The notes under the pieces were generated by a model, which was not told the DNA's origin, made no database searches, and saw only the letters and a list, made by a program, of their open reading frames with translations. The translations under genes were made by a program, and so were the position numbers. A DNA stretch of 64,000 bases, from positions 1,960 to 65,959 of the forward strand of contig JACRKF010000033.1 of NCBI GenBank assembly GCA_016219865.1, given 5' to 3'. This document shows positions 3,001 to 60,038 of this stretch, one piece after another. The DNA is from Candidatus Woesearchaeota archaeon (GTDB taxonomy: Archaea > Nanobdellota > Nanobdellia > Woesearchaeales > DSVV01). Positions within the stretch are counted from its first letter, which is position 1; each line of letters starts with the position of its first letter.

Positions 3001-3224
3001 TTGATCTTGTTATTAGCATGCAGGATGAAAATAACGGAGAAATAAAGACAGATAGTTTTATTATTCGAAGAACTGCAATTGATTTTTCTGTGCCTTTGAT
3101 TAATAATGTGCAGCTGGCAAAAGCTATTGTTGATGCAATACTTCGGAAAAAGCAAGAAGAATTGCTGCCATTGGCATTAGATGAGTATGTTCCTAAGAGA
3201 ATTTTGCAAAGCAAAATTCTCTAA
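3..3224 (+). CDS. carB: Carbamoyl-phosphate synthase large subunit, 5'-partial (frame continues upstream of the window: IGQAGEFDFSASQ... precedes the first Met)
   Basis: 1033+ aa with two ATP-grasp halves and full CarB-like architecture. Upstream in-frame translation from nt 3 (GQAGEFDYSG-like motif) shows the ORF start lies outside the window. Confidence 0.9.
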   Translation: MGQAGEFDFSASQCLKSLKEEQIETILINPNIATIQTSEGMADRIYFLPITPYFVEKIIEKETPDGILLSFGGQTALNCGLALDKAGVFARFGVKVLGTPVQSIRDTEDRELFVNRLNEINVKTAKSFAVNNIAAALKAAQQIGYPVMLRAGFSLGGKGSGVVYDETELFERAQKALAGVEQILIEEYLGGWKEIEYEVVRDCYDNCITVCNMENFDPMGIHTGESIVVAPSQTLDNAEYHLLREISIKVIRHIGIIGECNIQYALHPESREYRVIEVNARLSRSSALASKATGYPLAFVAAKLALGYSLLDIRNNITKVTTACFEPALDYIVIKIPRWDLKKFKEVDKRIGSEMKSVGEVMAIGRSFEETLQKAIRMLNIQAEGLCCNNSEFNNFQDIRNALKYPTDTRIFAIVESMKQGIAVDEIALLTGIDKFFLYKIRNIIDMEKELKELTETALTETTLMQLTPELLLEAKKLGFSDKQIGILLHKEESEIREHRLQHNIMPFIKQIDTLAAEYPAQTNYLYLTYNAAEHDIIFSSELQNSQNNNSIIMLGSGAYRIGSSVEFDWCCVSCVKALKKAGKKTIMINCNPETVSTDYDECDRLYFEELTLETVLQINYFEKPFGIVISMGGQIPNNLAMDLHKNNIKLLGTDAIDIDCAENRYRFSALLDSLEIEQPQWIETASISEAKRFAEAVGYPILIRPSYVLSGAAMNVLYNEELLDFYLREAVALNPKHPVVITKFIEHAKEIEIDAVAQRGEIIIFAISEHIEHAGVHSGDATMVLPCQKIYVETSKRIEDYARKIAKALSITGPFNIQFLAQDNYVKVIECNLRASRSFPFCSKVTNYNFVDIAAKAMLNETVEPVGDAAKNLNYVGVKAAQFSFSRLKNTDPIVGVEMRSTGEVACFGNDLDEALLKSLVATGFSIPQKSILVSISGDKNRFRLINELRRLYDNGYLLYATEHTSAFLTANGIANYRLYKIKDKIEPNVLSYLQQRKIDLVISMQDENNGEIKTDSFIIRRTAIDFSVPLINNVQLAKAIVDAILRKKQEELLPLALDEYVPKRILQSKIL
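3197..3221. repeat. Perfect palindrome GAGAATTTTGC-AAA-GCAAAATTCTC (copy a), overlapping the last codons and stop of carB
   Basis: Read directly: 11-bp arms, 3-nt loop. Confidence 0.8.
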
Positions 3225-3280
3225 TATAGGCAATTCGGACAGATGGAACTTAGTTAGAGAATTAAACAAATGGTGATCGC

Positions 3281-4198
3281 ATGAACTTCATAAATAGAGA
3301 TGTGATATCAATCAGTGATTTTTCAAAAGAAGAGATTCTTTTTATTCTTGACACAGCAGAAAAGATTGAGAATAAGGGCAGTTTTGGATTACTGAATGAT
3401 AAAATACTTGCAGTATTATTCTTTGAACCAAGCACAAGAACGCGATTAAGTTTTGAAAGCGCAATGCATCGTCTTGGCGGAAGAGTGCTTGGTTTCTCTG
3501 ATTATTTATCAACATCAACAAAAAAAGGTGAAAGTTTGCATGATACAATAAAGATGGTGGAGAATTATGCAGACATTATAGTTATTAGGCATTTTCTTGA
3601 CGGCGCTGCAAGATTGGCAGCTGATGCAACAGAGAAACCTATCATTAATGCAGGTGATGGCAGCAATCAGCATCCTACTCAAACATTGCTTGATTTATTT
3701 ACAATAAGAAAACTGCATGGAAAGATTGATACATTGCATATTGGTTTTGTAGGAGACTTAAAATATGGAAGAACAGTGCATTCTCTTGCAGCAGCATTAT
3801 CGCATTTTAATGTGCAGCTTTATTTTATCTCACCTGAAACTTTAAAGATGCCAAAACATCTTTTGGAAGAGCTTAGCGCTAAGAATATACAATATATAGT
3901 TTCTGATAAAATTGAAGAATTCATTCCAAAGCTTGATGTGTTGTATGCTACAAGAATTCAACAGGAAAGATTTGCTGATAGAAATGAATATGAAAAAGTG
4001 AAAGATAGTTATATATTGACAAAGAAAATGCTTCATGATGCAAAACCAACATTAAAGATATTGCACCCATTGCCAAGAGTTAATGAGATCTCAAGAGAGT
4101 TGGATGACACTCCATACGCTGCATATTTTGAACAGGCAAAATATGGAGTTGTTGTGAGAAAAGCAATAATTGGATTGCTGGCAGGTGTATACAAATGA
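3281..4198 (+). CDS. pyrB: Aspartate carbamoyltransferase catalytic subunit
   Basis: STRTR carbamoyl-phosphate motif and HPTQ motif; ~305 aa; lies in the pyr operon. Confidence 0.92.
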
Positions 4199-4671
4199 AT
4201 AACGAGCGCAAACATATTGGTTTTATTGAGCAAGGAACTGTAATAGATCACATTCATAATGAATCTATTTTTAAGATTATTAGGATATTAAAATTAGATT
4301 ATTCTCAGGCGCTTGTTTTTGTTGGATTTAATCTTGATAGCAAGAGAATTTCTAAAAAAGGCCTTATTAAGATTGAAGAAATTTTTCTGGATGATGAAAC
4401 TCTCTCTAAAATTGCATTAATTGCGCCTGATGCAACTATTAATATCATTAAAGACAGCAAAGTTACTGAAAAGAAAAAGCTTATTCTTCCAGATTCATTT
4501 CAAGGCTTAATGAAATGCACAAATTATAATTGTATAACTAATAAAGAGAATGTACACACTAAATTTTTGGTTCAAGATAAGATAAACAGAATATTTCAAT
4601 GTTATTTTTGTGAGACAAAGATTCATGATAATGAGATAGAGATAATTAGAGAAATAAAAGAAAAAACATAA
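4195..4671 (+). CDS. pyrI: Aspartate carbamoyltransferase regulatory subunit
   Basis: ATGA overlap with the pyrB stop; 158 aa; C-terminal Zn domain with CTNYNC...CYFC cysteine pairs. Confidence 0.85.
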
Positions 4672-4723
4672 TCATAAAACATAGTCATGTAAATGATATA
4701 ATAAACACTAATTTGGTGATAAA

Positions 4724-58764: not shown

Positions 58765-59376
58765 TCATTGCTGTGGTTGTATTAACAATTTTTCTGCTTC
58801 TTTGTTTTCAGCTTCTTTCTTCTCTTCTGCGCTTAATTCTTGCTCTTTTTGAGCTGATTTTTCATCTGCTATCTTTTCAATGCCTTTTTTTTCAGCTTTC
58901 TTTTCTTCTTCTTTCTTTTTTTCTTCTTTCTGCTGAACAATTTGTTTTTTCTTGCTAAGACGATCAATAAATTCTTGTTGCAATTTATTTTTATGAGCTT
59001 CTGCATCTTTAACAAACAACACGCGTAATCCTTTTTTTACTGCTTCTGCCAATATTAACATGCGCTTTTTATTTCCAACAGCGCCAGCAATGATTATAGC
59101 ATCCTTAGTCTTATCCAAATTTGCTAAAGCAGCAGGTGTTGAAACATTATGCATTGCATATCCTTCTCTGCTGAGCCCGCTCACAGCTGCAGGGGACTTG
59201 AATCCTGGTGATACTTTTTTAGCATTGCCCTTTTTATTGATACGAAGCTTGCTATGTAATCCTCTAGGGCTTCTCCAAGTATCTGGTAACCTTTTTCGTT
59301 TATATGCATCTTGCCTTATAAACGCTGGTTTTTTTCTCTTCATTTTATTTCTTTGTTCTAATAATGATTTATCCAT
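58765..59376 (-). CDS. rpl32e: 50S ribosomal protein eL32 with a Lys/Glu-rich C-terminal tail
   Basis: MDKSLLEQRNKMKRKKPAFIRQDAYKRKRL. Start placed at the ATG with AGGTG at -11 (track start 59406). Confidence 0.8.
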   Translation of the reverse strand: MDKSLLEQRNKMKRKKPAFIRQDAYKRKRLPDTWRSPRGLHSKLRINKKGNAKKVSPGFKSPAAVSGLSREGYAMHNVSTPAALANLDKTKDAIIIAGAVGNKKRMLILAEAVKKGLRVLFVKDAEAHKNKLQQEFIDRLSKKKQIVQQKEEKKKEEEKKAEKKGIEKIADEKSAQKEQELSAEEKKEAENKEAEKLLIQPQQ

Positions 59377-59433
59377 AATTATAACACCTTTATGATATTT
59401 ATGCATTTTATATGCGCATTTTATGCAGTTTAT

Positions 59434-59979
59434 TTATTGAGGTTTCTCGGTAATATAAATACCTTGTTGAAACACACGTTTATCAAATCCTGTTCTGCTT
59501 GCTAATCTTTCAACTGCTGCAGCAGTCATTCCTACTGCTTCAATATCATTACCTTCCACAGTAATAACTTCACCATCAATTTTAACACTAACTCCTTTAG
59601 TTAAAGATAATATTCGCGGCTTTTTCTCACCAATAAAATTCTTTACAATTACTTGATTATTAGTTACTGCGACATTCATTGGAAAGTGACCTGAACAAAT
59701 TTTTAATTTATAAACGTAATTTTTTTGCGCGCCTTCTATCATATTTTTAAGATGTGACTTAAAAGTGCCTAACATCATTTTCTCAGCTTTTGCCATAACA
59801 AGCACTGAAAAGTTAACAACAGATTTATCAACAGATATATTGATTCTTTTGCTTGATAATTTCCTCTGCAATTCTCCATTCTTTCCTTTTACAATAAGAG
59901 TTCCATCATGATATGTAACAGTTATTCCTTCTGGAACTTCCAATTGTTCTGTATATGCTTTAAGTTTCATGTTGTTCAC
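59434..59979 (-). CDS. rpl6: 50S ribosomal protein uL6
   Basis: PEGITVTYHDGTLIVKGKNGEL two-domain L6. Confidence 0.85.
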   Translation of the reverse strand: MNNMKLKAYTEQLEVPEGITVTYHDGTLIVKGKNGELQRKLSSKRINISVDKSVVNFSVLVMAKAEKMMLGTFKSHLKNMIEGAQKNYVYKLKICSGHFPMNVAVTNNQVIVKNFIGEKKPRILSLTKGVSVKIDGEVITVEGNDIEAVGMTAAAVERLASRTGFDKRVFQQGIYITEKPQ

Positions 59980-60010
59980 GATTTATTAAATCTATAACTA
60001 AAATAATTTT

Positions 60011-60038
60011 GCAGAGCAAAATTATTTTAATAACAATA
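60011..60038. repeat. Variant palindrome AAATAATTTTGC-AGA-GCAAAATTATTT (copy e), between rpl6 and rps8
   Basis: Shares the core TTTTGC-N3-GCAAAA with AATTAT arms in place of GAGAAT. Confidence 0.6.

Follow-up and report, generated by a model that had tools for sequence, protein, structure and literature searches.

What is the same perfect palindrome doing at scattered sites in an archaeal genome that is 92% coding? The question arises from a 64,000-nucleotide stretch of DNA of Candidatus Woesearchaeota archaeon (GenBank assembly GCA_016219865.1, contig JACRKF010000033.1, positions 1,960 to 65,959 of the forward strand), which we call the window. An earlier account made from the letters alone, referred to here as the original prediction, reported the palindrome and offered several identities for it: a factor-independent terminator or RNA-stability hairpin, a dispersed repeat resembling the repetitive extragenic palindromic (REP) elements of bacteria, or the operator of a palindrome-binding regulator. 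Our computational survey covered these 64 kb and roughly 250 kb from relatives. We find that the palindrome is one part of a longer, polar unit that in most instances adjoins a stop codon. With a confidence that stands near the midpoint of the scale, we propose that this unit defines a dispersed family of short stem-loops, found in a few Woesearchaeota lineages, that is an archaeal counterpart of bacterial REP elements in its behavior, has a role in RNA at 3′ ends and spreads by copying and insertion.

Three copies match the exact 25-mer GAGAATTTTGC-N3-GCAAAATTCTC, in which two 11-nt arms specify 22 bases: copy a at 3197-3221, copy b at 23016-23040 and copy c at 24236-24260. The identical arms enclose a 4-nt loop in the 26-mer at 38512-38537 (copy d), and a pattern search thus bears out the four sites of identical 11-bp arms that had been reported. 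The further statement that a perfect 25-nt palindrome occurs five times, together with one degenerate copy, was too strong, as the set then described comprises three exact 25-mers, one 26-mer, one variant and one decayed copy. The variant, placed at 60011, is real, although it proves to be a hairpin with 14-bp arms at 59999-60029 (copy e) that shares only the inner AATTTTGC-N3-GCAAAATT. The truncated copy reported at 46281 also exists (copy f), and a seventh copy (g) had been overlooked.

The proposed comparison with shuffled sequence, run here on the window, favors a genuine repeat: no exact 25-mer appears in 100 dinucleotide-preserving shuffles, against three in the actual sequence. Likewise, 0.02 occurrences of the inner core AATTTTGC-N(0-8)-GCAAAATT are expected and five are present, the fifth being the copy e hairpin. 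The family as a whole amounts to seven copies in 64 kb, spaced 1.2-22 kb apart, and shuffled sequences contain none. Lone half-sites with no more than one mismatch are at chance level in the window (about 5 versus 4.5 expected). Because an independent Logan assembly (L218) holds copy e unchanged, the palindromes are not assembly artifacts. The impression that a GC-containing hairpin stands out in this genome is weak, as the arms have 36% G+C and the window about 32%.

Similarity reaching past the palindrome was found by a BLAST comparison of the window with related loci, followed by alignment of the copies. The full unit consists of the hairpin, a variable spacer of roughly 6 nt and a conserved 15-nt box, A[G/T/A]GCAAT[T/C]CNRRACAR, for a total of about 45-55 nt. 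Copies that bear the box are present both in the window and in the relative GCA_018303075.1 (loci L061, L119/L187, L188 and L201). A covariance model built from eight copies recovered every copy of the original prediction plus two more, namely copy g and a long-stem variant in the same relative whose stem of about 19 bp is also followed by a box (L119 14-81). Among eight boxed copies, identity is 100% in the arms, 72% in the box, 42% in the loop and 35% in the spacer. The stems are perfect over 11-14 bp and the loops have 3-4 nt, which may read AAA or TTT within one and the same box orientation; the predicted RNA folding energy is about -8 to -12.5 kcal/mol (about -12 for the canonical form). 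Neither the downstream box nor the strict polarity of the unit relative to the upstream gene had been recognized in the original prediction.

The gene contexts originally given for copies a through e (the end of carB, minus-strand 3′ ends, a divergent region and the gap between rpS8 and rpL6) all hold. The hairpin of copy a, AGAGAATTTTGC-AAA-GCAAAATTCTCT, extends to 12 bp at 3196-3222 on the plus strand and forms the last codons of carB (..KRILQSKIL*), whose TAA stop lies at 3222-3224. Its box, AGGCAATTCGGACAG, occupies 3228-3242 (plus strand), 6 nt past the hairpin and 38 nt before the pyrB ATG (3281). Also in this spacer, the right arm of copy a and the carB stop (3215-3224, AATTCTCTAA) are perfectly complementary to TTAGAGAATT (3254-3263), 18 nt upstream of the pyrB start, which would permit an alternative pairing across the carB-pyrB spacer. 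Copy b (minus strand) begins 7 nt past the stop of an RPA-like gene (23048-24109, minus strand), has a TTT loop in gene orientation and carries at 22995-23009 a box, AGGCAATTCGGACAA, with a 14-nt match to that of copy a. Indeed, copies a and b have AGGCAATTCGGACA exactly in common, while their 6-nt spacers differ at five of six positions. Orthologue alignment corrected the start of the YdjM gene from TTG 22958 in the mechanical open reading frame (ORF) to ATG 22913, so that the spacer between RPA and YdjM measures 134 nt. Copy c (minus strand) follows a minus-strand gene for 156 aa (24262-24732) at a distance of 1 nt from its stop, and the conserved RPA TATA block is about 70 nt downstream of the copy; the copy's equivalent of the box at 24215-24229 (minus strand), AGACAAATAATGCAG, is weak, and the whole copy scores 62 bits in the covariance model. 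The nearby sequence CTGATGAG, a look-alike of a hammerhead or C/D box, was rejected as such for want of the rest of the core.

Copy d is a hairpin with no box, located in a divergent intergenic region and having no assigned strand; 6 nt separate the end of its right arm from the TATA box (tttataaaa) belonging to an epimerase gene that starts at 38575 on the plus strand. Copy e (minus strand) has the form TAAAATAATTTTGC-N3-GCAAAATTATTTTA, with two stem pairs changed on both sides, and overlaps the rpS8 stop codon (60027-60029) upstream of rpL6. Copies f and g sit side by side. Copy f (46281-46321, plus strand, 12 bits) begins at the stop codon of the ORF at 45997-46281 (plus strand) and is decayed: its left arm, GAGAACTTTGC, has one mismatch and runs directly into AAAATTCT, leaving a remnant at 46281-46299 that no longer folds, with the box-like ATGCAATCTCCTGACCAAG at 46303-46321. 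Copy g (46324-46376, minus strand, 28.8 bits, E = 1.7e-5) overlaps the stop of a DHH-family gene (46371-47414, minus strand) and combines the hairpin ATAAATTTTTC-TGCG-GAAAAATTTAT (46349-46374) with the box AGGCAATTATGATA (46343-46330). We considered whether f and g form one long hairpin like a REPIN, the paired form of REP elements, and rejected this because the pair does not fold in that manner. An uncertain internal remnant at 1624-1641 (minus strand) joins GAGAATTTTGC to AATTCGGA, or a left arm to the start of a box, within the variable carB linker that precedes the second ATP-grasp half. A lone exact arm has an expectation of about 0.04 from a composition estimate, and the sequence may be the deletion derivative of a copy that inserted in frame within carB.

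How the stems vary bears on whether the unit is recognized as a folded hairpin or as duplex half-sites. Four of the 11 pairs in copy g differ from the canonical stem, and every one of them is altered on both sides. Across 19 copies there are seven compensated double changes (in variants e, g and L119c) and a single broken pair, and this pattern of compensating changes points to a folded hairpin rather than to two independent half-sites. A duplex-DNA site for a dimeric palindrome-binding protein, be it an operator, a nucleoid or segregation site, or a transcriptional roadblock, would suit the perfect dyad with its center of 3-4 bp and the retention of the sequence across lineages of different G+C content. 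It would also suit the location of copy d beside a TATA box and of L119c in a divergent promoter region, and regulators of the TrmB and Lrp/AsnC types are encoded in the window. However, a protein that reads duplex half-sites would not favor the compensated changes, and lone half-sites are not enriched. Moreover, the neighboring genes are functionally incoherent (pyrB, YdjM, RPA, epimerase, L6, Rrp41), and the next start codon may be as near to a copy as 35 nt or as far as about 140 nt. Three copies (f, g and L119a) are flanked by convergent genes and have no promoter on the downstream side, and at orthologous sites the adjacent promoter blocks are conserved but the copies are not. Taken together, the copies between convergent genes, the incoherent neighbors, the unconserved positions and the compensated stem changes make a protein-binding site distinctly doubtful, and the operator suggested originally finds no support.

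Ten copies in the window or on related contigs can be oriented (a, b, c, f, g, L061, L119a, L119b, L188 and L201), and in every one of them the hairpin end overlaps a stop codon or lies within 8 nt of one, with the box pointing away from the upstream gene. Over all copies found, including those of a G+C-richer lineage described below, 15 of 19 are no more than 8 nt from a stop codon, and copies a and L188 are inside the last codons of their ORFs. Only two copies, d and L119c, are in divergent promoter regions. Some copies are internal to operons (carB-pyrB, rpS8-rpL6 and, in the relative, Rrp4-Rrp41), and others adjoin convergent genes (L119a, and f and g, of which f goes with one gene of the pair and g with the other). 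The copies are oriented according to the strand of the gene beside them and not in a single direction along the 64 kb (plus for a and f, minus for b, c and g). In relatives without the element, the RPA and S8 C-termini are conserved as far as the stop, and the stops beside these copies are therefore native to their genes.

Stable hairpins directly after stop codons, some of them at the ends of convergent genes, invite the idea of an intrinsic, factor-independent terminator. However, no run of five or more T residues follows any copy (the sequences downstream of the hairpins read CTCTAATATAGGC, CTCCTAGCGAGGC and similar), and a scan for hairpins followed by T residues calls none of the copies. 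Several copies are also inside operons, and in the S8-L6 and carB-pyrB pairs the short spacer contains no separate promoter for the downstream gene. Termination in archaea relies on U-tracts and aCPSF1 (PMC8716108), and a second hairpin family in the window, whose flanks are A/T runs, looks more like a terminator than this one does. Given the missing U-tract and the intra-operon copies, intrinsic termination is very improbable, and this part of the original prediction is not supported.

The second intergenic family is of interest in its own right. It is based on the 11-mer CACTTCGTTCA, exact copies of which are found at 5706-5716 (minus), 35366-35376 (minus), 38460-38470 (plus), 43967-43977 (plus) and 50672-50682 (minus); with up to one mismatch there are nine, where 0.66 are expected. 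The 11-mer forms the loop of hairpins whose A/T-rich stems differ from copy to copy and are flanked by A-runs and T-runs, an arrangement suggestive of a U-tract terminator that would work in both directions and has a conserved loop. A similar sequence, ataaaaaac[GACCGAAGGGA]gttttttat, directly follows the RPA gene in a relative. A further, unrelated perfect hairpin at 12587-12617 (14-bp arms, ATAAAATCATTCAT-TGC-ATGAATGATTTTAT) spans the start codon of a gene for a 1239-aa subtilase in a divergent intergenic region.

The history of individual sites can be followed in relatives. The window's RPA-like protein is 100% identical to NCBI HZA96_04010. The nearest relative, GCA_018303075.1 (JAGVYW01, RIFCSPHIGHO2_02_FULL_32_12), retains synteny with 90% identity in RPA and 92% in S8, while more distant relatives have 72% in RPA, 80% in S8 and 64% in a GT39 glycosyltransferase. 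A comparison of the window with JAGVYW shows only 52-70% identity at four-fold degenerate sites, a level near saturation. Site b is empty in two relatives: in JAGVYW (locus L212) RPA is followed by a different hairpin that has a U-run, and the YdjM gene is missing, and in the 72% relative (L214) the RPA-YdjM spacer is 23 nt long rather than 134 nt. Site c is empty in the same two loci, and its spacer is rearranged in all three genomes although a 31-nt RPA promoter block is identical between JAGVYW and the window. At this site L212 carries a 37-nt tandem duplication (4958-5035, two copies of attaatttgtcttaccaaattatggctcttgctcaaa) and an extra 156-aa gene, and the copy c spacer is a rearrangement hotspot. 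Site d is empty in the 64% GT39 relative (L217), which retains the TATA block. Site e is empty in L219-224, where JAGVYW-type contigs have an unrelated weak hairpin and the 80% relative has a spacer of 10 nt. For site f, a search for glycosyltransferase homologues returned three proteins only. The covariance model recovered no copy from about 78 kb of sequence from relatives.

JAGVYW nevertheless has four copies, at other sites. In addition, L214 contains two lone exact right arms, GCAAAATTCTC (6887-6897 and 9971-9981), each between the TATA box and the ATG of a gene. One of these continues with CTCataatcag and follows copy L119a exactly for 19 nt, and this arm is therefore a truncated family member; both appear to be truncated copies in promoter-proximal regions. 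Because orthologous sites are empty while copies or remnants occur elsewhere, the family is old, with single copies being gained, lost and left to decay. A comparison of filled and empty sites, of the kind used for miniature inverted-repeat transposable elements, does not define the edges of the element, as the empty sites of the relatives are too rearranged.

Such turnover is what would be expected if the palindromes were purely selfish or mutational, spreading or being regenerated by template switching and surviving only where they do no harm, past stop codons, with no function for the host. The high coding density of the genome, the empty orthologous sites and the decayed or truncated copies (f and the lone arms of L214) are all in keeping with this possibility, as is the presence of AAA or TTT loops in the same box orientation, which hairpin-mediated inversion predicts. 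As far as the account in PMC2800124 indicates, hairpin-forming repeats do invade compact AT-rich organelle genomes. However, harmlessness alone does not explain why, in 10 cases out of 10, it is the hairpin end that faces the stop codon. In copies a and b, 22 nt of arm and 14 nt of box are identical around randomized spacers, and orientation follows the local gene strand instead of one replication direction. We therefore judge this explanation unlikely.

The same 11-nt arms recur beside stop codons in a groundwater lineage of Nanoarchaeota/Woesearchaeota whose G+C content is about 47%. Three of its copies (L004b, L146 and L182) carry another conserved tail, rich in G and attached directly to the hairpin: CAGCGYGG..GGGGGG..GTAAAAAAC. 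Since this G-string tail is reminiscent of origin recognition boxes, we considered that identity and rejected it, as the copies are scattered, sit at gene ends and show no clustering around an AT-rich unwinding region.

Three features leave room for a signal that is read by factors: the strict hairpin-first polarity, the conservation of the box, and a hairpin shared between lineages whose tails differ. In this alternative, the unit would be dedicated to factor-dependent 3′-end formation or intercistronic processing, with one protein on the stem-loop and a second factor or a guide on the box, and the RNA would be cut, or transcription terminated, between the two with no need for a U-tract. The bipartite unit and its strict polarity beside stop codons would be explained, as would the constraint on arms and box when spacer and loop are free, the internally conserved tail of the 47% G+C lineage, and arms that are identical between genomes whose neutral sites are near saturation. 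The existence of a general termination nuclease in archaea, aCPSF1 (PMC8716108), is also in its favor. However, aCPSF1 is reported to act with U-tracts, which the copies do not have. Furthermore, the element accompanies about 7 of the window's roughly 66 genes, too few for a general signal, and the copies in carB-pyrB, S8-L6 and Rrp4-Rrp41 would cut co-transcribed messages. Copies d and L119c are in promoter regions, positions are not conserved between relatives, and no candidate binding factor or guide RNA was found. A dedicated processing signal thus seems unlikely. We are more skeptical still of a specific version in which hairpin, spacer and box would together be a sequence-specific, U-tract-independent punctuation signal carried on a mobile cassette, with a stem-loop factor and a box partner possibly feeding aCPSF1. 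If this were true, the unit would be an archaeal analogue of the histone mRNA stem-loop and histone downstream element system that can be installed behind different genes.

These considerations lead us back to a REP-like stem-loop family, an identity among those originally proposed that fits the data better than its rivals: copies are dispersed, lie at or over stop codons, occur within operons and between convergent genes, are absent from orthologous sites and include decayed examples. Under this proposal, most copies would be transcribed as the 3′ tail of the upstream cistron. The stem-loop could then be a barrier to 3′-5′ exonucleolytic decay, a processing mark, or both, and in this way might set the stability of the upstream message. 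In bacteria, REPs stabilize upstream mRNAs against 3′-5′ exonucleases, and the archaeal relative encodes the exosome subunits Rrp4 and Rrp41. New copies would originate from a putative copy-and-insert process that recognizes the hairpin, and in a genome with so little noncoding DNA, positions just past stop codons may be the only insertion points that are tolerated. As far as sequence can indicate, an RNA-stability or 3′-end hairpin appears to be the most plausible role at the level of the host.

Several observations weigh against the REP-like proposal. Its RNA component is inferred throughout, and a role at RNA 3′ ends is inapplicable to copies d and L119c in their divergent promoter regions. 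The 100% identity of the arms across genomes is partly a matter of ascertainment, as the foreign loci were found by scans for exact arms. Copies a and b of the window were not chosen in that manner, and they have the same arms and box with unrelated spacers and inverted loops. This is a poor fit to simple copying of one master, and suggests selection on modules or another generating route. The GTAG or CGTC tag of known REPs does not occur, the 5′ flanks being ctaaGAG, tgaaGAG, taaaGAG, gtagaGAG, catGAG and atagaGAG. Direct repeats flank copy a (AGAGAATT, 60 nt apart) and copy b (TCTGAAGA, 99 nt apart and itself quasi-palindromic), but the other copies have none, and there is no consistent target-site duplication. 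About 60 proteins of the window and 20 from related loci include no transposase, HUH or Y1_Tnp protein. Among the matches listed in a scan of genome collections, the close relative apparently has only a handful of exact copies. Finally, the REP-associated tyrosine transposases (RAYTs) have been reported only from bacteria (PMC6006769). Given the missing tag, the predominance of singletons, the absence of a visible transposase and the reports of RAYTs from bacteria only, membership in the REP-RAYT family is not established.

Among the matches listed by the genome-collection scan, made with an 18-base core pattern, most were unrelated bacterial hairpins, and DPANN relatives also appeared. A scan of viral contigs and BLAST searches of phages and plasmids gave no match. 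Rfam has no match in the window at the gathering threshold or at E ≤ 1, and in 12 related loci the only match is a tRNA; the window contains no tRNA. Inverted doublets or arrays of the bacterial interspersed mosaic element (BIME) type were not encountered, all copies being singletons save the f/g pair, and CRISPR-type arrays are absent from the window and the loci examined. In a metagenome scan with a 22-base pattern, about 80% of the matches come from two unrelated families of repeats with the same arm, one in human gut and the other in rumen. We take this sharing to be a coincidence among very many hairpin families, although this is unproven.

The gut and rumen families, both with the exact arm GAGAATTTTGC, are found within metagenome loci L121-L210 (e.g., L152 at 12139 and L128 at 6284 and 6417) and are multi-hairpin units of 43-47% G+C that have no Rfam, phage or plasmid match. 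The gut family has the flanks ..tttcgctcctaa and cgagacgaaa... The rumen family has the flanks ..ggattcctgac.., which resemble those of matches in Treponema/Spirochaetaceae metagenome-assembled genomes (MAGs) such as L106. Among archaea, a Thermoplasmatales MAG (L013) has a string of more than 10 different perfect hairpins at 3760-3960 and 4070-4440, on both sides of a sequence that looks tRNA-like by eye. One of these has a AATTTTGC...GCAAAATT core, and a Methanobacteriota locus (L100) also has the CTTCGGAATTTTGC..GCAAAATTCCTCG form.

Two observations concern genes near the copies. In the carB-pyrB-pyrI-pyrD-...-pyrF cluster that houses copy a, a single 649-aa ORF (5725-7674) has an amidohydrolase domain of the dihydroorotase type and a phosphoribosyltransferase domain, and may be a pyrC-pyrE fusion. 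Next to copy L119c, the relative encodes a full-length RelA/SpoT-type protein with HD, RelA_SpoT, TGS and ACT domains (L187 2442-4376, minus strand). To our knowledge, long RelA/SpoT homologs are uncommon in archaea.

REP-type hairpin repeats have long been studied in bacteria, and the sources consulted treat both them and their RAYT partners as bacterial. In our literature search we came across neither this motif nor REP-like elements of DPANN archaea, nor any report of REP elements for archaea, and a search on the arm sequences returned only primers and unrelated oligonucleotides. The family offers a handle on mRNA 3′ ends and on operon-internal message stability in an archaeon whose copies do without the usual U-tract, and on the spread of small repeats in a lineage with few recognizable mobile elements. 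The DPANN hosts are symbiont-like, with tiny, compact genomes and poorly understood gene expression. In groundwater metagenomes, the family also provides a simple sequence marker by which these lineages can be followed.

How does the family compare with systems that are already known? The DNA uptake sequences of Neisseria and the uptake signal sequences of Haemophilus form inverted pairs of a sequence-specific short motif at gene 3′ ends, as is the case here. However, single uptake sequences are strongly overrepresented genome-wide, whereas lone arms in the window are at chance (about 5 versus 4.5 expected). The layout at metazoan histone mRNA 3′ ends is also similar, with a stem-loop shortly past the stop, a short spacer and a conserved downstream element, and the histone-processing nuclease CPSF73 has the archaeal homologue aCPSF1 (PMC8716108). 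This likeness is an analogy of layout only, as neither a partner resembling SLBP or U7 nor a restriction to a single gene class is known here. To the extent described in PMC2800124, the repetitive hairpin elements of sponge mitochondria resemble the family in being small hairpins that invade the intergenic spacers of compact AT-rich genomes. Organelle elements of this kind are usually G+C-rich clusters with no fixed box or gene-relative polarity, and they are not homologous to the family.

The bacterial systems bring the comparison nearer to our proposal. As portrayed in 10.1101/2022.05.22.493013, REPIN-RAYT systems are likewise hairpin repeats that persist with their sequence kept for long periods within lineages. 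Here the sole inverted doublet is f/g, which comes from two convergent genes that each have their own copy, and no cognate transposase was found. The GTAG- and CGTC-tagged REPs and BIMEs of E. coli, Pseudomonas and Stenotrophomonas differ from this family in their bacterial hosts, their tags and their arrangement, as copies here are mostly single, and they have RAYTs, none of which was seen among the proteins examined here. Their stems are GC-rich where those described here are AT-rich, and the copy number here is apparently modest; nor do they have a conserved 15-nt box 6 nt past the hairpin or a strict polarity to the upstream gene. Even so, most bacterial REPs follow an ORF in a gap where the two genes are unidirectional or convergent; they may supply stop codons or sit within ORFs, and are thought to act as RNA elements (PMC3733652). 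Like them, the archaeal family consists of short dispersed palindromes that lie mainly downstream of ORFs and overlap stops, with conserved stems, free loops and lineage-specific content (PMC3733652).

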